From positions 1,440,694 through 1,504,693 of the forward strand of contig CAVXJN010000003.1 of assembly GCA_963762165.1 (NCBI GenBank): DNA of 64,000 nt, read 5' to 3'. This document shows, piece after piece, positions 6,867 through 61,127 of this stretch (positions within the stretch are counted from its first letter, which is position 1; each line of letters begins with the position of its first letter). Below the pieces are notes generated by a model, which searched no databases, was not told the origin of the DNA, and was given only the letters and a program-made list of their open reading frames with translations. The position numbers and the translations under genes were made by a program. The DNA is from an uncultured Gammaproteobacteria bacterium (lineage in GTDB: Bacteria; Pseudomonadota; Gammaproteobacteria; JASBUN01).

Positions 6867-7842
<976 letters not shown>

Positions 7843-7845
7843 GCG

Positions 7846-8463
7846 ATGGGGCAGGTGAAACGGCGCTATTACAAAGTCGCGGTGTTTGGTTTGTGCCTGC
7901 TGCCGCTGGGAATGTTGGTCTGGCAGGCCGCGTTCCATGATCTTGGTGCAAATCCGGTCGAATCCTTACTGCACCGCACCGGCGACTGGACGCTACGGTT
8001 CCTGCTGATCGTCTTGGCGGTGACGCCATTGCGGCGACTCACCGGCTGGAACGAACTGCAGCAATCGCGACGCATGCTGGGCCTGTTTGCGTTCTTCTAT
8101 GCGACGCTGCATTTCTCGGTTTATGCATTCCTCGACCTGGGATTGGATTGGGGTTTTCTCGCCGAAGATATCGCCAAACGGCCGTATATCACGGTGGGTT
8201 TTACGGCCTGGGTCTTGTTGGTACCGCTGGCGTTGACCTCGACCCGCGGCATGATGCGTCGCCTCGGCAGGCGTTGGAAACAACTGCACCGCGTGATCTA
8301 CATCATCGGCCCGCTCGGCGTGGTGCATTATTACTGGCTGGTCAAGGCGGACGTGCGCGAGCCGCTGGTCTACGGGAGTATTCTGGTAGTGCTGCTGACC
8401 CTGCGACTGAATTGGTGGGTTCGGCGGCGGATACTTTCCCCGGCGCGCTCGGCGGCGGGCTGA
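7846..8463 (+). CDS. msrQ: protein-methionine-sulfoxide reductase heme-binding subunit MsrQ (YedZ)
   Basis: 205-aa multi-TM protein immediately downstream of msrP with the conserved His-containing helices. It matches the YedZ family. Confidence 0.9.
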   Translation: MGQVKRRYYKVAVFGLCLLPLGMLVWQAAFHDLGANPVESLLHRTGDWTLRFLLIVLAVTPLRRLTGWNELQQSRRMLGLFAFFYATLHFSVYAFLDLGLDWGFLAEDIAKRPYITVGFTAWVLLVPLALTSTRGMMRRLGRRWKQLHRVIYIIGPLGVVHYYWLVKADVREPLVYGSILVVLLTLRLNWWVRRRILSPARSAAG

Positions 8464-21596: not shown

Positions 21597-22417
21597 GTTA
21601 GCTCGTTTCCTTGTCGTGCTCGATCAGCGCGTACGCGGAGTGATTGTGAATGGATTCGAAGTTCTCCGACTCCACTGACGTAGGCACCGATCCGGTCGTC
21701 TTCATTCAGGCGCCCGGCGACATCCCGAACCATGTCTTCGACGAATTTCGGGTTGTCATAGGCCCGTTCGGTCACGAATTTCTCGTCCGGCCGTTTCAGC
21801 AGACCATAGAGCTGCAGGACGCTTCGTCTTCCACCAGGTCGATCACTTCCTCGATCCAGATAAAGCCCCTGGTGCGGACCTTGACGGTGACATGTGAGCG
21901 TTGGTTATGGGCGCCGTAATCGGAAATCTTCTTCGAACAAGGGCACAGGCTGGTCACCGGCACCACCACCTTGATATGCATGCTCGGCGCACCGTCACGG
22001 ATCTCGCCGATCAGCGTGACGTCGTAGTCCATCAAGCTCTGCACGCCCGACACCGGCGCGGTCTTGTTGATGAAATACGGAAACTGCATTTCGATATGAC
22101 CTGACGTCGGCTTCCAGGCGATCGGTCATTTCGGCGAGCATTTCCTTGAACGAGTCCACCGAGATCTCACGCTCGTGGAGGTTGAGGATCTCCACGAACC
22201 GCGACATGTGCGTGCCCTTGAAATTATGCGGCAGGTTCACGTACATGTTGAAGTTGGCGACGGTGTGCTGCTCGCCGCCCGAGCGGTCCTTGATGCGTAC
22301 CGGGTGGCGAATATCCTTGATTCCCACCTTGTCGATGGCGATGCGGCGCATGTCGGCGCTGCTCTGGACGTCTTCGATCTCGGCACCAGCCGTACCGATT
22401 GTGCTCATTTCATTCAT
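21597..22417 (-). pseudogene. folE2: GTP cyclohydrolase FolE2 (type IB, MptA family); at least 3 frameshifts, probably sequencing error
   Basis: N-terminal and central FolE2 sequence is in ORFs 21995..22444 and 21796..22089 (RHPVRIKDR...[20 protein letters not shown]; LCPCSK). The C-terminal [16 protein letters not shown] is readable only in a third frame around 21600-21680. Confidence 0.8.
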
Positions 22418-22592
22418 ACTCTCGGCTGTTCCTGTGAACTGCACGCGGACGCGACTTTGGAACCTTCAAGTTTACCTTGGTCCGGCCTTCGAATCGACCG
22501 CAGACTGGCTGAGACTTCGAATTCGGCGGGCCGTTGGCGGTGATTCCGGGCGATGCGGGGCGAAAGCTATAGGCGACTAAAGCAGTAGGATA

Positions 22593-24475
22593 TTACTGCA
22601 GTGCCTGGGCTTTTGCAACGGCGGGCAAACGCGCGCGGATGCTGCGCAGGATCGCTTCGACGTCGAGCCCGGATTCCGCCAACTGCTCGTCGGGGGTGCC
22701 GTGTTCGATGAAACGATCCGGCAGTCCCAGATGCATGATGTTGTGGGGCTCGCCTAGTCCGTGCAACAGCTCTGCTACTGCGCTGCCCGCGCCTCCGGCC
22801 ACCGCGTTTTCCTCGATCGTGACCAGTAGTTCATGTTCGCGGGCGCTGCGCAGGATCGCTTCTTCGTCCAACGGTTTGACGAAGCGCATATTGATCAGGG
22901 TTGCGTCCAGAGTCTCCGCGACCACTGCGGCGCGCTCCACCATGCTGCCGAAAGCGAGTAACGCGATCCGCTGGCCCTTGCGCCGCAATTGCGATTTGCC
23001 GATTTCCAGCGGCTCATGCGTTTGGCGGACCGTTACTCCAGGGCCGCGGCCGCGTGGATAGCGCACCGCGCTGGGGCCTTCGATCTCGTAAGCGGTGTCG
23101 AGCATCTGCCGGCATTCGTTCTCATCCGCAGGTGCCATCACCACCATATTCGGGTATGCAGCGCAAATAACTCAGATCGAAGCTGCCGGCGTGGGTCGGA
23201 CCGTCAGGCCCCACCAGTCCGGCGCGGTCGATGGCGAGCACGACCGGAAGCTTCTGCAGCGCTATGTCGTGAATGAGCTGATCGTAACCACGCTGCAGAA
23301 ACGTGGAATAAATGGCGAGCACCGGCTTCATTCCGGCGCAAGCCATTCCCGCGGCGAGGGTTACAGCGTGCTGTTCAGCGATGCCGACGTCGTGGAACCG
23401 TTGCGGATAGCGTTCCGAAAACGCGACCAGCCCGGAGCCTTCGCGCATGGCCGGCGTGATTGCGGTCAAGCGCGCGTCCTGCTGCGCGCGATCGCATATC
23501 CAGTCGCCGAAGACTTCGGTGTAGGTAGGCCGGCCCTTCGTTTTAATCGGTTGCGGTCCCGTGACCGGATCGAATTTGGATACCCCGTGGAGCGCGCAGG
23601 GATTGTCTTCGGCGGGCGGGTAACCCTTGCCTTTTTGCGTAACGACGTGCAGAAAGCGCGGCCCTTCCAGCTCGCGCAGGGTGCGCAGGGTGCGCACCAA
23701 CTGCGGCAGATCATGGCCGTCGATGGGGCCGACGTAATTGAAGCCCAGTTCTTCAAACAAGGTTCCCGGAACCACCATGCCTTTCATATGTTCTTCGGCG
23801 CGGCGTGCGAGTTCCATCATGCTCGGCACCGCGGAAAGCACTTTCTTGCCGCCTTCGCGCATACTGGCGTAAAAGCGGCCGGAGAGGATCTTGCCCAGAT
23901 AGCGCGACAGTCCGCCGACATTGCGGGAAATGGACATCTCGTTGTCGTTCAGGATCACCAGCAGATCCGCATCCACGTCGCCGGCGTGGTTGAGCGCTTC
24001 GAACGCCATGCCGGCGGTCATTGCGCCGTCGCCGATCACCGCGACGGTCTTGTTGGTGGCGCCGGTGCGCGGCAGCCGCCAATGCCATTCCCAGTGCGGC
24101 GCTGACCGAAGTGCTGGAATGGCCGACGCCGAAGGCGTCGTAGGGACTTTCGTTGCGCCTGGGAAACCCGGCAATGCCGCCGTACTGGCGCAATCCCGCC
24201 ATGGCTTCCCGGCGTCCGGTCAGTATCTTGTGGGGATAGCTCTGGTGGCCGACGTCCCAGACCAAGCGATCGCGAGGCGTATCGAAAACGTAGTGTAGCG
24301 CCACCGCGAGCTCGACTGTGCCCAGATTCGCAGCCAGGTGGCCACCGGTACGGGCAACCGACTGAACCAGAAAATCCCGCAGCTCAGCGGCCAGTTGACC
24401 CAACTGTTGCTTGGTCATGCCGCGCAGGTCGGCAGGATCGTTCACAGTTTCGAGGAGCGGATAGTTTTGGGTCAT
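22593..24475 (-). pseudogene. dxs: 1-deoxy-D-xylulose-5-phosphate synthase; at least 2 frameshifts, probably sequencing error
   Basis: Three ORF pieces (23753..24475, 23122..24174, 22593..23147) together are collinear with E. coli Dxs over the TPP-binding, transketolase-pyrimidine and C-terminal domains. The indels lie near 24090-24170 and 23140. Confidence 0.9.
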
Positions 24476-25797: not shown

Positions 25798-25826
25798 TTG
25801 ACAATGCCTGCCTCGTGAACTACATT
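25798..25826 (+). promoter_or_regulatory. sigma70-like promoter: TTGACA, 17-nt spacer, TACATT, driving the rubrerythrin cluster
   Basis: A perfect -35 hexamer at 25798-25803 and a 4/6 -10 at 25821-25826 sit in the 110-bp divergent region between xseB and the rubrerythrin gene. Confidence 0.45.
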
Positions 25827-25835
25827 ACCTGGCAC

Positions 25836-25856
25836 AGTTTAGACTGATTCTAAACT
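25836..25856 (+). promoter_or_regulatory. perfect 8-5-8 palindrome AGTTTAGA-CTGAT-TCTAAACT at the predicted +1 of the rubrerythrin promoter; candidate repressor operator
   Basis: Read directly from the sequence. It starts about 10 nt downstream of the -10 hexamer. It does not match the Fur, PerR or OxyR consensus sites I know. Confidence 0.4.
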
Positions 25857-25913: not shown

Positions 25914-26333
25914 ATGGAACTGAAAAGCAGCAAAACCGAACAGAATCTGAAAGACGCCTTTGCCGGCGAATCCCAGGCGAACCGTCGCTACCTGTACTTT
26001 GCGGCCAAGGCCGACGTCGAAGGGTACAACGACGTAGCTTCCGTATTCCGCTCCACCGCCGAAGGCGAAACCGGCCATGCGCACGGTCATCTGGAATATC
26101 TGGAAGCCAGCGGCGACCCGGCTACCGGTCTGCCCATTGGCGCTACGTCCGACAACCTCAAGGCCGCGATTGCCGGTGAGACCCATGAGTACACCGATAT
26201 GTATCCGGGAATGGCCAAGTCCGCCCGCGATGAAGGTTTCGATGAAATCGCAGATTGGTTCGAAACCCTGGCCAAAGCCGAGCGCTCCCATGCCAACCGC
26301 TTCCAGAAAGCGCTGGATACCCTGGGCGAGTGA
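25914..26333 (+). CDS. rubrerythrin-family diiron protein (ferritin-like domain only, no rubredoxin domain)
   Basis: 139 aa from the ATG at 25914, 7 nt after a GGAGGA RBS. The two E-x-x-H diiron halves are [10 protein letters not shown]...[11 protein letters not shown] and [11 protein letters not shown]...AERSHANRF. Confidence 0.85.
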
Positions 26334-26345
26334 TCGATACGACGC

Positions 26346-26376
26346 GCAGGGGCCCATCGGTCCCTGCCGTTTTCTC
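26346..26376 (+). terminator. hairpin GCAGGG-N10-CCCTGC followed by CGTTTTCTCG between the rubrerythrin gene and the Fe-S gene; possible attenuator or partial terminator
   Basis: Read directly from the sequence. The short U-rich tail suggests weak or partial termination. Confidence 0.3.
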
Positions 26377-26404: not shown

Positions 26405-27748
26405 ATGGCAGCACCGAACGGAACACGCGAAGGCAGTCTTGAGGCGCCGACCCGCCATCCGCTGGGTCAGCAGGAAGCGAAATTCTGGGATGAGGACGCG
26501 TTGTTCCAGGAGATGGAGCGCGTATTCGATATCTGCCACGGCTGCCGCCGGTGCGTGAGCCTTTGTCATTCGTTTCCGACCTTGTTCGACCTGGTGGACG
26601 AATCGGAGACCATGGAGGTCGACGGCGTCGCCAAAGACGACTATTGGAACGTGGTGCAGCACTGTTACCTGTGCGATCTGTGCTACATGACCAAATGCCC
26701 TTATGTGCCGCCCCATGAGTGGAATGTCGATTTCCCGCACCTGATGCTGCGGGCGAAGGCGGTGCACTTCAAGAAGCACGGTGTGCGATTCCGTGACCGC
26801 GTCCTGAGTTCCACCGATCAGGTCGGTAAGCTGGCCGGGATCCCGGTTGTGGCGCAGGCGGTCAACGCCGCCAACCGATCCAAACCGGCGCGTAAACTGC
26901 TAAGCAAGACGATGGGCGTGCATCCGGATGCACTGTTGCCCGCCTATCATAGTTCGACGCTGCGCAAACGGGTTTCCGGGCGCGTATCCGCGGTGACGCA
27001 ACCGCAGCCGGCAGGGGAAACCCAAGGCCGCGTGGCGCTGTTCGCGACCTGCTACGGTAATTTCAACGAGCCTCATCTTGGCGAAGACCTGATTGCCGTG
27101 TTTGAGCACAACGGCATTGCGGTAAGCATTGCAGAGAAAGAGCAATGCTGCGGCATGCCGAAGCTGGAACTGGGCGACCTCGAAGCCGTCGAGCGCGCCA
27201 AGAATGTCAATATTCCGGTGTTGGCAAAGCTGGTGGATCAAGGCTGGGATATCGTGGCGCCGGTGCCGTCCTGCGTGTTGATGTTCAAACAAGAGCTGCC
27301 GCTCATGTATCCGCACGATGCCGATGTCGCCAAGGTTCGCGATGCGATCTACGATCCGTTCGAATACTTGGTCTTGCGCCACAAGGAAGGCAAGCTCAAT
27401 ACCGAGTTCAAGCAACCGCTGGGGAAAGTGGCCTATCACGTGGCCTGCCACCAACGAGTGCAGAATATGGGCATGAAGACCCGCGACATACTTCAGCTGG
27501 TCCCGGAGACCGAGTTACAGCCGATCGAGCGTTGCTCCGGGCACGATGGCACGTACGCGGTGAAGAACGAATTCCATGAGATTTCCATGAAGATAGCCAG
27601 ACCGGTCGTCAACCGTGTGAAGCAGGCCGAAGCGCAGTACTACACCAGCGACTGCCCGATGGCCGGTCATCAAATTGAAAATGGATTGCGAAACGGCGAA
27701 GCGCCCAAGCATCCGCTGACACTGCTTCGCATCGCCTACGGATTGTAG
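26405..27748 (+). CDS. heterodisulfide-reductase-related (Fe-S) oxidoreductase: 2x[4Fe-4S] ferredoxin region plus two CCG cysteine-rich domains (GlpC/HdrD/LutA-like)
   Basis: [15 protein letters not shown] and [17 protein letters not shown] (ferredoxin motifs), then CCGMP...C and a second Cys-rich CCG-type segment. The start is placed at the Met of MAAPNGTRE inside ORF 26255..27748. Confidence 0.8.
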
Positions 27749-27781: not shown

Positions 27782-28084
27782 ATGAGCAGTGAGGGGTTCC
27801 ACGAACGTTTTGAAGATTTAAGCGATGAAACCCGCGACATGCATCGCGCCATCGCGTCTTTGATGGAAGAACTCGAAGCGGTGGATTGGTACCAGCAGCG
27901 CGTGGACGCGTGCAAGGATGAGCAGTTGCAGGAAATCCTTGCCCATAATCGAGATGAGGAAAAGGAGCATGCTGCAATGGTGCTGGAATGGATTCGCCGG
28001 CGCGATCCCAAATTTGATCAGCACTTGAAGGACTATTTGTTTACCGACAAGCCGATACTGCAGATCGAGCAACAGTCGGACTGA
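27782..28084 (+). CDS. encapsulated-ferritin-like (EncFtn family) ferritin-like protein
   Basis: 100 aa, with an AAGGAG RBS. The core HRAIASLMEELEAVDWYQQRVDACKDEQLQEILAHNRDEEKEHAAMVLEWIRR is near-identical in pattern to Rhodospirillum rubrum EncFtn (HRAIVSVMEELEAVDWYDQRVDA...ILAHNRDEEKEHAAMTLEWLRR), recalled from memory. Confidence 0.75.
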   Translation: MSSEGFHERFEDLSDETRDMHRAIASLMEELEAVDWYQQRVDACKDEQLQEILAHNRDEEKEHAAMVLEWIRRRDPKFDQHLKDYLFTDKPILQIEQQSD

Positions 28085-28107: not shown

Positions 28108-28692
28108 ATGCAGAAGCTAACCCGCGACGACTTGTATTCTCTGGAAAAGTACGCTGAAGTGCGGAATCAGTTCCGAGCCGAGGTGATGGAACACAAGAAG
28201 AATCGCCAGGTTGCGGTCGGTCCCAATGCGACCTTGTATTTCGAAGACCGGCTCATTATGCAGTACCAAGTCCAGGAAATGCTTCGCGCCGAGCGCATCT
28301 TCGAAGCCGCAGGCATTCAGGAAGAACTGGATTCCTATAATCCGCTGATCCCGGATGGCGACAACTGGAAGGCGACTTTTATGATCGAGTATCCTGACGC
28401 CGACGAACGTAAAGTGGCGCTTTCCAAATTGCTTGGGGTTGAGGACCGGGTCTGGGTGAAGGTTGAAGGTTTCGATCCTGTTTTTGCGATCGCCGACGAA
28501 GACATCGAACGCGAGACCGCCGAAAAGACCTCTTCTGTACATTTTCTACGTTTCGACTTGAACCCGAACATGATCGGCGCGGCCAAGGATGGCGCCGCAG
28601 TCTCGATCGGGATCGATCACGAGCACTATCGCCATCAGATCAGCCCCGTGCCGGCAAACGTACGCGATGCGCTGACGGCGGATCTGGACTAG
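28108..28692 (+). CDS. DUF3501-family protein
   Basis: About 195 aa with an AGGTGA RBS before the ATG at 28108 (alternative GTG 28099). The family assignment is from memory of the DUF3501 layout and its usual neighbourhood with CCG Fe-S proteins and rubrerythrins. Confidence 0.65.
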   Translation: MQKLTRDDLYSLEKYAEVRNQFRAEVMEHKKNRQVAVGPNATLYFEDRLIMQYQVQEMLRAERIFEAAGIQEELDSYNPLIPDGDNWKATFMIEYPDADERKVALSKLLGVEDRVWVKVEGFDPVFAIADEDIERETAEKTSSVHFLRFDLNPNMIGAAKDGAAVSIGIDHEHYRHQISPVPANVRDALTADLD

Positions 28693-28840: not shown

Positions 28841-31343
<2,503 letters not shown>

Positions 31344-36326: not shown

Positions 36327-36605
36327 TTTCGGTCGCCGGGCCAGGAAAAGCTTGGCCAATGATAACACGTGCCCCCATGATCTCGATAACCGGCTGATTT
36401 GCGGCGCGCTGGATGCCGGCCGGACGGCGCGATGGTTGCACGGTCGGGCACGCGGGTTATGGCCATCGAAAAGATATGGAAATCGTTCGTCGCGGACCAC
36501 GGTCCGGTTATGTCCGGCGCGTCAGCATCGCGCCGCCCTATGGCGCCGTGCATCGCACGGACCGCGCCGTTACAATACTCCGTTTGTGACAATTTGGACT
36601 CAGTC

Positions 36606-37861
36606 ATGACCTTGATTCGACCTTTTCGTGGTCTGCGGCCTGCACCTGAGCGTGCGGAGGACGTCGTCGCGCCGCCTTACGACGTTTTGACGACCGCAGA
36701 AGCACGCCTTCGCGCCGAAGGAAGGCCGTGGAGTTTTCTGCACATCTCCAAGCCGGAAATCGATTTGCCTGCCGATACCGACCCTTATGACTCGAAGGTC
36801 TACGAAAAGGGCGCGCAAAATCTGCAGCGCATGATTGACGAGGGCGTGCTGATCCGGGATCCGCAGGACTGCTATTACGTGTACCGGCTCACCATGGGCA
36901 GCCATACCCAGACCGGCTTGGTGGCGGTGGCTTCGGTTGCCGACTATGACAGCAACCGCATCCGCAAGCACGAGTTTACCCGGCCGCAGAAAGAGGATGA
37001 TCGCGTCCGCCAGATCGATGCCCTCAATGCCCAGACCGGACCGGTCTTTCTTACCTACCGACACCATGCCGAGGTCGATCGGCTCCTGGAGCGCTGCAAC
37101 CAAGGAAAACCCGGTTTACGACTTGACGGCCGACGACGATGTTCGCCACACGCTATGGGTGGTTGCGCGATACCGCAGTGATCGATACCTTGACGGCCAG
37201 CTTCGACGCCATGAATTGTCTGTATATCGCCGACGGGCACCATCGTTCCGCGGCCGCCTCGCGGGTTGCGGCATTACGTACCGCAGCCAATCCAAGTCAT
37301 AGTGGTGAGGAAAGCTACAATTATTTTCTGTCTGTGTTGTTTCCCGACGATCAGATGCAGATTTTGGATTACAACCGGGTGCGTCAAGGATCTTAATGGT
37401 CATTCAAAAGAAGAGTTTTTGGCGCTGGTCAGCGAGCGTTTCCAGGTCTCGGCGCAATCGGAGGCAGTACGTCCCCGGCAGGCAGCCGAGTTCGGCATGT
37501 ACCTCGACGGTCAATGGTATCGGCTGCGCGTTGCCGCAGGAGCGCGTTCCCGCGGACGACCCGGTGGCGCGTCTGGACGTGAGTCTGCTGGCCGATAATC
37601 TCATCAGCCCGATTCTCGGTATTGACGATCCCCGCCGCGACGAACGGATCGATTTCGTCGGCGGTATCCGCGGGCTGGGCGAACTGGAAAAGCGGGTCGA
37701 CAGCGGCGACATGGCGGTGGCCTTTTCGCTGCATCCCACTGCGATGCAGCGATTTGATGGCGGTGGCGGATGCCAACGAAGTCATGCCGCCGAAGTCGAC
37801 CTGGTTCGAACCGAAGCTGGGAGACGGTCTCGGTTTCCCACGTTCTGGATTGAAGGTCTAG
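36606..37861 (+). pseudogene. DUF1015-family protein; at least 3 frameshifts, probably sequencing error
   Basis: The N-terminus MTLIRPFRGLRPAPERAEDVVAPPYDV and the C-terminal motif MPPKSTWFEPKL are typical of DUF1015. The pieces lie in ORFs 36399..37181, 37139..37396, 37266..37598, 37396..37935 and 37622..37861. Confidence 0.7.
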
Positions 37862-40826: not shown

Positions 40827-42578
40827 TTATCTCTCCGCTCCGGCATCGGGTCGGTCACCGTCCAACCGGTCGTAGACGAAGTGGGAAAAACTTCCGTTGC
40901 GCTCCAACTCTTCGGTCAACTGAACGCGCCGGGGCATGCCCTGATGCAAAACTTCAAGCTGTTCGCCGACGCGATGTTCGGTGGAAGCGACGATCAAGCT
41001 CGCCGGTTGCCCGGCGGCGCGAATCGCAGGCAAATCCAGCGCGGTATCCTGACGGCGATCGCGCGTATTGCGCGCTAATACTGCTTCGGCGGACGGCGCG
41101 AGGATCTCGATGCCCAGTTTGAGGCCTTGATCGGGTTCGTATTGCATCCAGCGGACCACGCCGACGGTCCAGGAGTGGCCGCCGTTCTCTCTCAGGCTCA
41201 CGACTTCGCCCACTTTCGCCGAGGATGGCTTGTCGCTGTCCCAAAGCAGGCAGCAACCGCGGGCGCTGACATCCACCGTGCGCCACAAGAAGTCCCGGTA
41301 CTCGGGTTCCGGCAAAGCCGCACCCGGCAGCGGATAATGCGCCACCGAATCGCTGCGCCGCGATGTGTTTGCGAAAAATCGCTCATTGCCGTCGTCGTAC
41401 CAGCTGTGGTCGAGCGTGATATGGGTTTCGCCTTGATTGGTCTGTAAGTCCAGCGGCGGCACGATTCCCAGAGCCGGCGGGAATTCTGCCGGTATTTCGG
41501 GCACTGCCGGGGCGTCGCGTTCGAGCAAAAAGTACGCGGTGTTCAATCCCAGGCCGACGCGTATGTCCGATGCCTGCGTTATACGCTTGAAACCGCGTCG
41601 GGGAGGACGGCGCCACAGGGCCAGCAGCCGACGGCGCAATTGCAGCTCCGGTTCATTGTGCTCGAGCCCCGCTTCGTCCAGCGCTTCCACTACAGCCGAC
41701 AGATCGACATAACGGACATTGCCGGCATCGTGTTCCTGTGCGCGAGGGTACGGAGGACGGTCCTGTTCGGTGCGTATCTGGAACGCGGTGTGCTGGGTGG
41801 GTTGCGGACTGAGAATCAGCTTGTGTGCGAGCGCTGAGGCCAGGGTCAAAACGCGGCCCAGCTCGTCGCGACGCAGTCTATAGGGGTTGGCTAGGCTCAC
41901 CAGCAACGACTCCCGGTACAGTTCGCCGATGCGCGATCCAATGGGCGCGCGGCGGCTCGCCGCAGCGGGCGTGAGCAGCTCGTGATCCTCGGCGATTCGA
42001 TGCAGGCTGTGCAGGTCGAGCCACAGTCCGTCGCTGGAGGGCGCATACAAGACATAGTGATCGAGCAGCAATCGACCAATTTGCTGCAGGGCGTGTTGCA
42101 GCGATGCGGCCAACAACTTGCGCTCGCTGCGTCCACCTGTAATCGAATCGACGACTATCAGTTTGTAGGTGTCGGCGAATGAGCGCAGCAGTGAATTACA
42201 CAGGTCTGCTTGCTGCACCGCTTTGCCGGTGAGCGGAAAGCCCCGGTGACTGATGCCTTTGATCAGGGCGCGGGTCCCGAATCCGACGGTTTCGTGAATC
42301 GCATCGGCGAACCGATAGCGGCTGGGCGCATCCACGGCTGCTCGGTTCGACGACTGCACCAATGCCAGCAATCGACGGCACGATTCCTGGGGGTCGGCCA
42401 GAGGCAGTTGCCGGAGCCATTCCTGAATCCGGCGCGGCCGCAGGTCGAACTCGGATCGTTGCCGATCCTGCATCGGCACGCGAAGCCCATGGCGAGACTC
42501 ATATTTTTCTTGGTCCATCATCCGCTGTCGATCCACAATCTCCGTGCCGCGCGAGCGGCGCCGATTTTCTTCCACCAT
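40827..42578 (-). CDS. large (583 aa) protein with a C-terminal PilZ-like domain (tentative c-di-GMP receptor); N-terminal 400 aa uncharacterised
   Basis: The C-terminal segment has a DxSxxG-type motif (DVSARG) about 30 aa after an RR stretch, but the RxxxR motif is not canonical. It is convergent with the GNAT gene (3-nt gap). Confidence 0.4.
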   Translation of the reverse strand: MVEENRRRSRGTEIVDRQRMMDQEKYESRHGLRVPMQDRQRSEFDLRPRRIQEWLRQLPLADPQESCRRLLALVQSSNRAAVDAPSRYRFADAIHETVGFGTRALIKGISHRGFPLTGKAVQQADLCNSLLRSFADTYKLIVVDSITGGRSERKLLAASLQHALQQIGRLLLDHYVLYAPSSDGLWLDLHSLHRIAEDHELLTPAAASRRAPIGSRIGELYRESLLVSLANPYRLRRDELGRVLTLASALAHKLILSPQPTQHTAFQIRTEQDRPPYPRAQEHDAGNVRYVDLSAVVEALDEAGLEHNEPELQLRRRLLALWRRPPRRGFKRITQASDIRVGLGLNTAYFLLERDAPAVPEIPAEFPPALGIVPPLDLQTNQGETHITLDHSWYDDGNERFFANTSRRSDSVAHYPLPGAALPEPEYRDFLWRTVDVSARGCCLLWDSDKPSSAKVGEVVSLRENGGHSWTVGVVRWMQYEPDQGLKLGIEILAPSAEAVLARNTRDRRQDTALDLPAIRAAGQPASLIVASTEHRVGEQLEVLHQGMPRRVQLTEELERNGSFSHFVYDRLDGDRPDAGAER

Positions 42579-55061: not shown

Positions 55062-55607
55062 TTGGCAGTGGCTGCGGAGCCCGGCACTGACACGGAAACC
55101 GAAGCCGCTGAGCCGTTGGTGATCGTCGGCCGGGTCTCCGGTTTGTTCGGCGTCAAGGGCTGGCTCAAGATCTTCGCCTACACCGACCCGCGGGAAAACA
55201 TTTTGCAGTACGACCCGTGGTATTTGCGGCTCGCGGATGGCTGGCGCCAGGTTTCGATCGCCGAAGGCCAGCGGCACGGTAAAACCGTGATTGCGCGACT
55301 GCAAGGTTGCACGGACCGTGACACGGCTGCGGCTTGGATCGGCCACGACATCGCGGTGCGCCGGGAACAGTTACCGATCCTGGGCGACGATGAATTTTAC
55401 TGGTCCGATCTGGAAGGGCTCGAGGTCGTGACCACCGCTGGAGTTGCGCTGGGCAAGGTTGCACATTTGCTGGAAACCGGCGCAAACGACGTGCTGGTGG
55501 TGCAAGGCGAGAGGGAACGGTTGATTCCCTATATTCGACCGGACGTGGTCGTCGAGATCGACCTGGCTGGTGGAGTGCTGCGGGTCGACTGGGATCCGGA
55601 GTTCTGA
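55062..55607 (+). CDS. rimM: ribosome maturation factor RimM
   Basis: RimM/PRC barrel layout ([18 protein letters not shown]). Confidence 0.9.
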
Positions 55608-55615
55608 TCCCGGCG

Positions 55616-56380
55616 ATGCGCATCGACGTCGTAACCTTGTTTCCGGAATTGGTGCGCGGCTTGACGGTGGGCGGCATCACCGGGCGGGCTGTGGAACGCG
55701 GAATTCTGGACCTGCAGTTCTGGAATCCGCGCGATTACACCCACGATCGACACCGCACCGTGGACGACCGCCCATACGGCGGCGGTCCGGGAATGGTAAT
55801 GAAAGTCGAACCCTTGCGGGCGGCGATCACGGCAGCGCGAGCCGCCCAGCAACAGGATTGCCCGGTGATCCATCTCAGCCCGCAGGGACGACGTCTGGAT
55901 CAAGCCGGGGCGCATGAACTGGCGACGCAGCCGGCCATGATCCTGGTTGCCGGACGCTACGAAGGCATCGATGAGCGGGTCGTGCAGACCGAGATCGATC
56001 AGGAATGGTCGATCGGCGACTATGTGTTGAGCGGCGGCGAGCTGGCGGCGATGGTTGTTGTCGATGCCGTGACCCGTTTGTTGCCGGGGGCGTTGGGCGA
56101 TGAGGATTCGGCACAGCAGGATTCGTTCGCCGATGGGTTGTTGGATTATCCCCATTACACCCGGCCGGAAGTGATCGACGGACTGCGGGTGCCGGAAGTA
56201 CTGCTCGGAGGTAATCACCAGGCCATCGAGCGCTGGCGGCGCAAGCAGGCTCTGGGCAGAACTTGGTTGCGGCGCCCGGACCTGTTGCAGGTTTTGGAGT
56301 TGGACCAACCGCAACGCGAGTTGTTGCAGGAATTCATTGAGGAGCACCGGCAAAGCGAAGACAATGCCGGCGACGTCTGA
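55616..56380 (+). CDS. trmD: tRNA (guanine37-N1)-methyltransferase
   Basis: [11 protein letters not shown]...[13 protein letters not shown] is the TrmD signature. Confidence 0.95.
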
Positions 56381-58673: not shown

Positions 58674-59157
58674 GACCACCGCGATCGCAGTGATTCCGGC
58701 GCCGTTCGGCCGGGTAGGCATCTGGGTTGGCGACGGCTGCCTGGAGCGCCTAGAACTGCTGTCCGGCGATGGCCCGCTGCGGGCGCCGGTATCTGGGCTG
58801 TCGGTACAGGTGGCGCAGCAGCTGGCGCACTATTTCCGCAGTCCACGCTTTCGATTCTCCGTGCCGTTGCAACCACTCGGTACCCCGTTTCAGCAGCGGG
58901 TGTGGGCGTCGCTGGGCGACATCCCGGTCGGTGAAGTGCGTACGTACGGCGAATTGGCCACCGCCCTCGGCACCGGCGCCCGGGCCGTGGGTGGGGCCTG
59001 CCGCGCCAATCCGGTCCCCATCATCGTGCCCTGCCACCGGGTCGTGGCGGCGGTGGGAATCGGCGGCTTCGCCGGACACACGATGGGCGCGCAACTGGCG
59101 TGGAAGCATTGGTTATTGGCCCACGAAGGACGAGGCTTCCCCGCCACCGGCCCTTGA
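58654..59157 (+). CDS. ogt: methylated-DNA--protein-cysteine S-methyltransferase
   Basis: The active site PCHRVV is present with the surrounding helix-turn-helix region. The start is at the Met of MPNRPIETT. Confidence 0.8.
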
Positions 59158-59230
59158 AAGTCGGCTACGGCGCCCCCATAAGCACAGCTTTGAACGTGGT
59201 GGACCGGTTACTCAAGGAGAAGCGCGGATC

Positions 59231-61127
59231 ATGACTGTCGACACCCATAAAGAAACCCTCGAATTTCAGACCGAAGTGCAGCAGCTGCTGCACCTGATGA
59301 TTCATTCGCTGTATTCGAACAAGGAGATCTTTCTGCGTGAACTGATCTCCAATGCCTCGGATGCCTGCGACAAGCTGCGCTTCGAAGCGCTGACCGACGA
59401 CGCCCTGTACGAAGGCGACAGCGATCTGAAGATCCGCGTGTCGTTCGACAAGGAAGCACGCACCGTGACGGTCGCCGACAACGGTATCGGCATGAGCCGC
59501 CAGGAAGTGATGGACAACCTCGGCACCATCGCCAAGTCCGGCACCCAGCAGTTCTTCCAGTCGCTCACCGGCGATCAGGCCAAGGACACCAAGCTCATCG
59601 GCCAGTTCGGCGTCGGTTTCTATTCCGCTTTCATCGTCGCCGACAAGGTCACGGTGACCACGCGCCGCGCCGGGCTGGGCGCCGAACACGGCGTGCGGTG
59701 GGAGTCCGACGGCAAGGGCGCGTATACCCTGGAGAACGTCGAACAGGACCGAGCACGGCACCGAAGTGACGCTGCACCTGCAAGCAGGACGAGGACGAAT
59801 TTCTCGAACCCTACCGGCTGCGCGCACATCATCAAGAGTACTCCGACCACATCAATCTGCCGATCCGATGCATGGCGCAGGCGAGGATGACGATGACGCG
59901 AGGACGAAACCGTCAACCAGGCATCGGCGCTGTGGGCGCGGCCCAAGTCCGAAATCAGCGACGAGGAATACAAGGAGTTCTACAAGCACGTCGCCCACGA
60001 CTTCGAGGACCCGCTGGCCTGGACCCATAACCACGTCGAGGGCACCCAGAGCTACACCGGTCTGCTGTATATCCCCAAGCGGGCGCCGTTCGATCTGTGG
60101 GACCGCGACAAGCGGCATGGCATCAAGCTGTACGTGCGCCGCGTATTCATCATGGACGACGCCGAGCAATTGATGCCGCAATTATCTGCGTTTCGTGCGC
60201 GGTCTGGTGGATTCCGACGACCTGCCGCTCAATGTGTCCCGCGAAATTCTGCAGCACAACCGTCAGATCGACACCATCCGCGGCGCATCCGTGAAGAAGA
60301 GTGCTGGCGCTGCTGGAAGAATTGGCGGAAAAGGATGCCGGAGAAGTACGCGCGAATTCTGGGACCAATTCGGCCAAGTGCTGAAGGAAGGCCCGGCGGA
60401 AGACTTCGGCAACCGCGAGCGGATCGCCAAGTTGCTGCGTTTTGCCTCGACCCACAGCGACACCGCGGCGCAGGAGGTTTCGCTGCAGGACTACATCGGG
60501 CGCATGCAGGAAGGACAGGAGAAGATCTACTACGTCACCGCCGACACCTTCGCCGCGGCCAAGAGCAGCCCGCATCTGGAGATATTCCGCAAGAAGGGCA
60601 TCGAAGTGCTGTTGCTGCACGATCGCATCGACGAGTGGATGATTTCCCATCTGAGCGAATTCGATGGCAAGAAGCTGCAATCGGTCGCCAAGGGCAGCCT
60701 CGATCTCGGTGCCCTGGAAGATAAGGAGGAAAAAGAGCAGCTCGAGCGCGAGGCCGACGCCCACAAGGATTTCATCGATCGTATGCGCAAAGCCTTGGGC
60801 GACAGGATCAAGGACGTACGCGTCAGCCACCGACTGACCGATTCGCCTTCGTGCCTGGTGGTCGAGGAAGACGACATGGCGCTCAGTCTGCAGAAGGTAC
60901 TGAAACAGGCGGGACACGACGTTCCGGCAGTCCAGCCAATCCTGGAAATCAACCCGCAGCATCCGCTGGTGGTGCGTTTGGAGCAGGCCGGAGACGAAGA
61001 ACGATTCGCCGACTGGAGCAGCCTGTTATTGGAACAGGCGACGCTGGCTGAAGGCGGGCAGTTGGAAGATCCGGCGGCGTTCGTGGCGCGATTGAACCAG
61101 CTGCTGCTGACGCTGGCCAAGGAATGA
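59231..61127 (+). pseudogene. htpG: molecular chaperone HtpG (Hsp90); at least 2 frameshifts around 59750-60200, probably sequencing error
   Basis: The N-terminal ATPase domain ([45 protein letters not shown]) is in ORF 58769..59890, and the middle and C-terminal domains are in ORF 60195..61127. The joining region reads correctly only by frame-hopping ([14 protein letters not shown] in the third frame). Confidence 0.9.

Follow-up and report, generated by a model that had tools for sequence, protein, structure and literature searches.

The window analyzed here, a 64,000-nucleotide (64-kb) stretch of contig CAVXJN010000003.1 from an uncultured Gammaproteobacteria bacterium, contains a rubrerythrin operon within which lies a short ferritin-like gene of the encapsulated ferritin (EncFtn) type (Table 1). 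The genes on either side encode, in order, a rubrerythrin (RBR), the rubrerythrin-associated oxidoreductase named RFO (PMC5114695), and a DUF3501 protein. The set RBR-RFO-DUF3501 is known from earlier work as the 'aerobic-type rubrerythrin' system (Cardenas et al. 2016, PMC5114695; PMC7050145), and the window contains its diagnostic traits: an RBR without rubredoxin domain, an oxidoreductase with CCG domains, and DUF3501, all co-linear. The additional gene, between RFO and DUF3501, encodes a member of the s-FLP class, defined in a 2024 review as short EncFtn proteins without a targeting peptide, with PDB entry 3K6C as the type example (PMC11202242). The genes are tightly packed, with spacers of 71 nt (RBR-RFO), 33 nt (RFO-sFLP) and 23 nt (sFLP-DUF3501).

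Table 1. Features of the rubrerythrin operon in the window and regulatory or ferroxidase genes at related loci.
Feature	Sequence	Position	Strand	Properties
Sigma-70-like promoter candidate	window	25798..25826	+	TTGACA-17-TACATT, 10/12 consensus matches, upstream of RBR
Palindromic operator TTTAGACTGATTCTAAA	window	25838..25854	+	one mismatch from the iron control element (ICE) consensus TTTAGAA-N3-TTCTAAA (13/14)
RBR, aerobic-type rubrerythrin	window	25915..26333	+	139 aa; Pfam Rubrerythrin 1.4e-29 over the whole protein
GC-rich hairpin and T-run after RBR	window	26346..26367	+	9-bp stem, 7 GC pairs, tail CGTTTTCTCG
RFO, GlpC-like Fe-S oxidoreductase	window	26405..27748	+	447 aa; Pfam CCG 3.8e-16, two stretches
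s-FLP open reading frame (ORF)	window	27782..28084	+	100 aa; predicted short EncFtn-fold ferroxidase without targeting peptide
DUF3501 protein	window	28108..28692	+	194 aa; Pfam DUF3501 6.5e-74; third canonical member of the RBR system
CNP1-like protein (PF08750)	window	28841..29422	+	Pfam CNP1 2.7e-37
Dps/ferritin-type gene	L090	2185..2739	+	PF00210, 9e-29; directly after DUF3501
Irr-like Fur-family gene	L082	7318..7809	-	NCBIfam
Irr-like Fur-family gene	L155	5683..6126	-	NCBIfam
Irr-like Fur-family gene	L153	2477..2920	-	NCBIfam
Irr-like Fur-family gene	L142	685..1128	-	NCBIfam

The s-FLP reading frame starts with an ATG preceded 8 nt upstream by AGGAG, ends with a TGA stop, and is intact over its full length against homologs. 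It encodes an EncFtn-fold protein, matching Pfam PF22277 (EncFtn-like) at 6.1e-44 over profile positions 2 to 85 of 85 (148 bits, cutoff 27) and NCBIfam TIGR04535 ('encapsulin-associated ferritin-like protein') at 141 bits, above the curated cutoff of 125. The closest solved relative by both sequence and fold is 3K6C (Nitrosomonas europaea NE0167; 2.7e-42, 74-76% identity, gapless). The EncFtn proteins of Haliangium ochraceum (5N5F/7OE2, 61% identity) and Rhodospirillum rubrum (5DA5, 65% identity) also align without gaps, the R. rubrum numbering being that of the window protein plus 2. No active-site ligand is missing: the ferroxidase ligands Glu32, Glu62, His65 and Tyr39 and the entry-site residues Glu31, Glu34 and Trp38 of R. 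rubrum EncFtn (PMC5012862) correspond to E30/E60/H63/Y37 and E29/E32/W36, and both sets are invariant in an alignment of 53 homologs. The preliminary description of this sequence had reported an EncFtn core with its ferroxidase ligands and a DUF3501 gene immediately downstream, and both identifications are borne out by the profile matches.

Structurally, the AlphaFold2 model (pLDDT 83.6) has helices at residues 15-43, 47-74, 76-86 and 92-99, that is, two long antiparallel helices and a short C-terminal helix, as in the EncFtn fold, and its top Foldseek matches are 3K6C, 5N5F and 5DA5 (TM ∼0.73-0.8). The type structure is a decamer (PMC11202242), its PDB entry containing 10 chains, and by homology the window protein should likewise assemble as a decamer from five dimers, each dimer interface holding a di-iron ferroxidase site. 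The turn connecting the helices carries a cysteine, Cys44 (D42-A43-C44, window positions 27908-27916), within a DAC[KS][DE] motif; this residue is at least 90% conserved among the 53 aligned homologs and is Cys in H. ochraceum EncFtn and Ser in R. rubrum.

The RBR start (ATG at 25915) is preceded by GGAGGA, no rubredoxin domain is found in the protein by Pfam, and the sequence is 87-99% identical to the RBR of related clusters. RFO scores below the cutoffs of the NCBIfam GlpC-type models; its start was inferred from the 447-aa Thioalkalivibrio sulfidiphilus ortholog together with the ATG at 26405. The DUF3501 start (ATG at 28108) is preceded by GGTGA and lies directly past the s-FLP spacer. 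This protein matches PDB 3FJV, deposited as an 'uncharacterized novel protein', at 1.1e-60, and its alignment displays many invariant acidic residues and three invariant histidines.

The C-terminus of the s-FLP differs from that of EncFtn proteins with a targeting peptide. The chain stops 16 residues past the conserved YLFT motif, with the tail PILQIEQQSD. Among family representatives (50% identity, 1358 clusters, E up to 1e-3), those with a targeting peptide continue for 35-55 residues beyond YLFT and finish in sequences such as RLTVGSL, SLGIGSLK or FTIGSLR, and the termini of short family members are PIAH[E/K/D] or PIxx[LI]E. The targeting consensus L/F-x-V/I-x-x-L/I is absent from the s-FLP tail and present in positive controls of the same family, and alignment to cargo ferritins reveals no disordered C-terminal linker with targeting peptide in the s-FLP. 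Its PILQIEQQ segment aligns with PILELEEE, which is part of the crystallized H. ochraceum EncFtn domain and precedes that protein's own linker and targeting peptide. Because the tail corresponds to this structured segment upstream of the H. ochraceum linker, the s-FLP looks like a cargo protein cut just ahead of its linker.

No shell gene accompanies the s-FLP in the sequences searched. The query for phmmer was the Thermotoga maritima encapsulin, verified as identical to 3DKT_A, which detects the H. ochraceum, mycobacterial, Myxococcus xanthus, Quasibacillus thermotolerans and Pyrococcus furiosus shells of the PDB at E<1e-7. It matches none of the reading-frame segments of at least 80 aa in the 64-kb window, and the 30 window ORFs of at least 200 aa contain no Linocin_M18 or HK97 match by Pfam, their families being those of ordinary housekeeping and signaling. 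The same query finds no Family 1 encapsulin within up to 10 kb on each side of 80 sampled s-FLP loci and no encapsulin across 163 related loci totaling 1.9 Mb. Two window ORFs of 583 aa that lack a Pfam match were considered as paralogs or hidden shell genes and rejected: they are mutually unrelated, and one is probably an antisense artifact. Other long window ORFs without a significant Pfam match are 40827-42578 (-; weak PilZ, 0.0045), 6913-7938 (-) and 55529-56353 (-), some of which may also be antisense artifacts in this 61% GC sequence.

These data bear on whether the s-FLP is still an encapsulin cargo, delivered to a distantly encoded shell by a non-canonical signal, as the preliminary description had proposed; such a signal could lie in the short C-terminus, for example at L93-Q94-I95. 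The 2024 review leaves shell loading of s-FLPs open and lists a 'putative' signal, LFTD(E/N)KPIAHE (PMC11202242), and the tail formally fits LxI(L)x, the minimal motif in the literature; furthermore, the shell search of the source genome spans 64 kb only. Set against this, the tail is acidic, lacks a Gly/Ser-Leu signature as well as the six-residue consensus, and matches the structured segment that in cargo proteins stands ahead of the linker and targeting peptide. In addition, family members occur in at least 591 species, and no shell gene occurs in the window or within ∼10 kb of the 80 species-level relatives. The genera Thioalkalivibrio, Methylotuvimicrobium, Hahella and Halioglobus are not seen in the accessible part of the 2021 encapsulin census, which argues weakly in the same direction. 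Delivery to a distant shell is therefore very improbable, and the earlier proposal of a non-canonical signal remains unsupported. The absence of an HK97-fold shell gene from the window and of the usual targeting signature from the C-terminus, both noted in the same description, stands.

A shell-less EncFtn protein had been presented in that description as an anomaly; by sequence comparison, the window protein is instead a close member of the published s-FLP class and not a new kind of protein. It has the attributes of the class, with a length of 100 aa (class range ∼95-100 aa), no long disordered C-terminus, and 3K6C as its nearest solved relative. The label 'non-encapsulated' for such EncFtn proteins reportedly stems from Giessen and Silver in 2017. 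Scanning one genome per species, relatives are found in at least 591 species genomes; the best 80 of these, on which the neighborhood counts below rest, are 73-95% identical to the window protein and 94-109 aa long. The nearest relative belongs to the metagenome-assembled genome (MAG) MFD01721.bin.1.106 (95% protein identity, and 88.7% nucleotide identity over 20 kb). One s-FLP, 80% identical to that of the window, comes from a MAG labeled 'uncultured Halobacteria archaeon' (L046, contig CAVYIJ010000001.1), likely the result of mis-binning, mislabeling or recent transfer.

Within the class, the C-terminal consensus LFTD(E/N)KPIAHE has been given as a 'putative' signal (PMC11202242). The window protein keeps LFTDKPI and replaces AHE with LQIEQQSD, a PIxx[LI]E variant common to many relatives of 100-101 aa. 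These longer 'PIxxLE' tails are commoner in operon-embedded copies (7/12 versus 4/68, Fisher p=6e-5), a comparison confounded by shared ancestry. In stand-alone s-FLPs (L005-L083 and P0013-P0120) the C-terminus is almost always PIAH[E/K/D]; the window protein lacks this conserved terminal His. Some stand-alone members possess His-rich extensions (HHHEDH, GHHDH, HPHDHD).

Genomic neighborhood analysis reveals that the linkage between s-FLP and the rubrerythrin operon recurs. The order RBR-RFO-sFLP-DUF3501 is also found in T. sulfidiphilus, and it occurs in 10 of the 80 species-level s-FLP loci, MAG MFD01721.bin.1.106 included; an eleventh linked locus (L050) has the order DUF3501-sFLP. Outside the window, the sFLP-DUF3501 spacer is typically 26-64 nt. 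The reverse view starts from the DUF3501 gene and 80 of its metagenomic relatives; for 69 of them the upstream sequence is long enough to be informative. The s-FLP lies between RFO and DUF3501 in 10 of these 69 clusters, as well as in L089 on a short contig, and directly after DUF3501 in two others (L088, L098). Carriers thus amount to ∼12/69, about 17% of the sampled aerobic-type rubrerythrin clusters. The s-FLP is not a regular component of the system; it is facultative, since in 51/69 clusters RFO lies directly 5' of DUF3501 and no s-FLP is present. As the neighbor-joining tree of the s-FLPs has too little resolution for recruitment events to be counted, the DUF3501 tree was used, and on it the carrier clusters are interleaved with non-carriers.

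The downstream position can also be filled by a different ferroxidase. In cluster L090, which groups with L088 and L098 on the DUF3501 tree, the slot holding the s-FLP in those two clusters is occupied by a Dps/ferritin-type gene, and the exchange looks like a non-orthologous replacement. Operons combining Dps, RBR, COG0247 and DUF3501 have been published, the one in Sideroxydans being linked to OxyR (PMC7852563). No bacterioferritin is found near any cluster with the Escherichia coli Bfr query. Judged from these sequence comparisons, the s-FLP is a facultative accessory of the rubrerythrin operon, with repeated apparent gains or losses, and its position can be taken by another ferroxidase. 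Linkage of EncFtn with DUF3501 or RFO is not reported in the literature searched, and the occurrence of an EncFtn-type ferroxidase gene as a facultative addition to this three-gene operon appears to be new.

Upstream of RBR, the promoter candidate is followed, 12 nt past its -10-like hexamer, by a palindromic operator that lies 61 nt ahead of the RBR ATG. The promoter scan yields about as many sites as shuffled sequence and the hexamer pair is a candidate only; its position just 5' of the operator and the RBR gene fits. The operator is the only ICE match at ≤2 mismatches in the 64 kb, where 0.01 is expected. At the same threshold it is found in 31/47 RBR-upstream regions of related loci (control windows: 0/219 at ≤3 mismatches), and its arms TTTAGA and TCTAAA are invariant there. 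The consensus it matches with one mismatch is that of the ICE bound by Irr in Alphaproteobacteria, and both ICE and Irr were reported absent outside that class in 2006 (Rodionov 2006, PMC1698941). In Bradyrhizobium, Irr represses the rubrerythrin-like gene blr7895 and bfr via such sites under iron limitation (PMC3413700). Fur-family genes stand beside four related clusters, one of them, in a Thiodiazotropha MAG (L082), divergent from RBR. The best NCBIfam matches of these proteins are IrrA/Irr at ∼1e-33 (114 bits, below the 150-bit cutoff), and they carry an HHH or HQH motif but lack CxxC pairs. An ICE-like operator paired with putative Irr-like regulators on this operon in Gammaproteobacteria appears to be new. 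The upstream regions of 70 stand-alone s-FLP genes contain neither an ICE-like nor a Fur-box-like operator.

Taken together, the favored and reasonably likely interpretation is that the s-FLP is a free decameric ferroxidase, recruited to an iron-regulated peroxide-defense operon as an optional accessory that detoxifies Fe(II). From homology and genomic context we infer decamer formation, ferroxidase activity, co-transcription, iron-dependent regulation and the physiological role itself. Because it has no C-terminal linker and targeting peptide, the protein is expected to be free in the cytoplasm. There, a ring of five dimers would oxidize Fe(II) at the interface di-iron sites, as characterized EncFtns do (PMC5012862), with H2O2 or O2 as possible oxidant. 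Isolated EncFtn oxidizes iron and does not store it (PMC5012862), and the s-FLP ring would be unable to retain mineral because it is open. In the window, as in a minority of related bacteria with a scattered distribution, the gene would have been inserted into the RBR-RFO-DUF3501 operon, where it is probably co-transcribed from a promoter under an ICE-like operator of the kind bound by Irr. RBR would reduce H2O2 and the s-FLP would meanwhile remove Fenton-active Fe(II) when iron is plentiful, a job that Dps may perform when it takes the same slot in related operons. This corresponds to the preliminary description's suggestion that an EncFtn-type ferroxidase acting on its own was co-opted into a rubrerythrin/Fe-S module, favored here because the link to RBR-RFO-DUF3501 is seen again and again, across many species and with two different gene orders.

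Several points weigh against this interpretation. In all-versus-all ORF clustering, 69/80 s-FLP loci share no neighbor within 5 kb on either side, the apparent conserved neighbors of stand-alone genes being antisense artifacts only; since these relatives stand alone, the s-FLP needs no rubrerythrin module. Likewise, the 51 rubrerythrin clusters described above work without an s-FLP. Operon adjacency could partly be a product of the mobility of the gene, and the number of gains and losses is uncertain, as the trees are neighbor-joining trees of short, very similar sequences. No Irr-like gene is found in the 64-kb window, to which the shell search of the source genome is also confined. Unshelled EncFtn releases insoluble Fe(III) and aggregates in vitro (PMC5012862), and a purely detoxifying role would therefore need an acceptor. 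Finally, no s-FLP experiments were found in the literature searched, and 3K6C is an unpublished structural-genomics entry in the apo form (PMC11202242).

The first of these points also feeds the view that the adjacency is incidental, a small, mobile and self-sufficient iron-handling gene having landed in the operon with no functional tie. The homolog P0119 is annotated as 'putative integron gene cassette protein', which, together with the 69/80 neighborless loci, is consistent with a small, often relocated gene; the stand-alone copies also lack the operator. This view is nevertheless improbable, given that ∼12/69 clusters of one operon carry the s-FLP, in two positions, on the same strand and with short spacers, and that the bearers are scattered over the DUF3501 tree. 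A single 300-bp gene is not expected by chance beside DUF3501 so often, and a ferroxidase of another family, Dps, fills the same slot in a sister cluster.

Alternatively, the s-FLP could be a redox partner within the operon rather than a sacrificial ferroxidase: either another di-iron peroxidase that RFO re-reduces, or a protein that donates or chaperones iron to load or repair the RBR di-iron site or the RFO Fe-S clusters, with DUF3501 as a possible iron acceptor. The EncFtn dimer does recreate the four-helix di-iron site of rubrerythrin and ferritin-like proteins (PMC5012862), the operon encodes an electron-transfer protein, and the invariant acidic and histidine residues of DUF3501 and the enrichment of 'PIxxLE' tails in operon-embedded copies point the same way. 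Yet the di-iron site of characterized EncFtns is a labile substrate site (PMC11202242, PMC5012862), most RBR clusters have no s-FLP, and the tail enrichment is confounded by ancestry, so that such a partnership has little likelihood. The more far-reaching proposal, that an encapsulin-independent EncFtn ring is a dedicated, iron-regulated partner of the aerobic-type rubrerythrin machinery, acting as a second di-iron peroxidase that RFO re-reduces or donating oxidized iron to DUF3501, can be entertained tentatively and is doubtful. If true, repeated independent recruitment and interchangeability with Dps would define an unrecognized 'peroxidase plus ferroxidase' module, and would suggest that the free rather than the encapsulated form is the common and perhaps ancestral state of the EncFtn fold.

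There are consequences for annotation as well. EncFtn proteins are generally considered only in their role as encapsulin cargo, and the NCBI model names the gene 'encapsulin-associated'; on genes such as this one, that annotation is not evidence of a nanocompartment. The short, shell-less EncFtn is very widespread, and one recurrent genomic partner is the aerobic-type rubrerythrin operon, a linkage that offers a concrete and testable physiological context for the s-FLP class. For the three-gene peroxide-defense system, it would add a first accessory component and a candidate regulator site.

Beyond the ferroxidase, the neighborhood has further features. The hairpin and T-run after RBR may act as an attenuator or partial terminator, damping read-through into the downstream genes. 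The CNP1-like gene is often located 3' of DUF3501 on the same strand (L004, L013, L048 and ∼17 metagenomic loci), with s-FLP present or absent; it could be one more gene with a loose link to the unit, or reflect mere conserved synteny. Several housekeeping genes of the window are split into overlapping or adjacent ORFs, namely a FolE2-like GTP cyclohydrolase, dxs (three pieces) and htpG (two), and DUF1015 is truncated (21796-22444, -; 22593-24475, -; 58769-61127, +; 36399-37181, +). Such splitting points to indel errors in a long-read metagenome assembly or to pseudogenes.

The window protein and its operon can be compared with several known systems. With the encapsulated ferritins R. rubrum Rru_A0973 and H. 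ochraceum Hoch_3836, it shares the di-iron ligands, the PIL-x-[IL]-E segment and 61-65% identity over its whole structured domain. Unlike them, it lacks the ∼30-40 C-terminal residues that carry the linker and a peptide of the SLGIGSLK type, and its neighborhood contains no shell gene; therefore, the s-FLP would be unable to store iron as those systems do. With 3K6C/NE0167 it has in common the length class, the fold, and the absence of a linker, targeting peptide and adjacent shell gene, and the ferroxidase and entry ligands are alike except that NE0167 has L at the position of W36. The window protein differs from 3K6C-type s-FLPs in ending with PILQIEQQSD rather than the class-typical PIAH[E/K/D], and its gene is embedded in a rubrerythrin operon, whereas most members stand alone.

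At the level of regulation, the window operator overlaps the promoter of a rubrerythrin gene, as in the Irr/ICE regulon (blr7895); here, in contrast, the window and related hosts are Gammaproteobacteria, and the neighboring regulators match the Irr models only below cutoff. The Dps-containing rubrerythrin operons provide a functional parallel, a ferritin-superfamily ferroxidase having likewise been added to a peroxide-defense module, although Dps is a closed dodecamer that stores iron, whereas EncFtn is an open ring without storage (PMC5012862). Compared with the aerobic-type rubrerythrin system itself, the window retains all three defining genes, co-linear and tightly spaced, and adds a fourth, the EncFtn-type ferroxidase between RFO and DUF3501.

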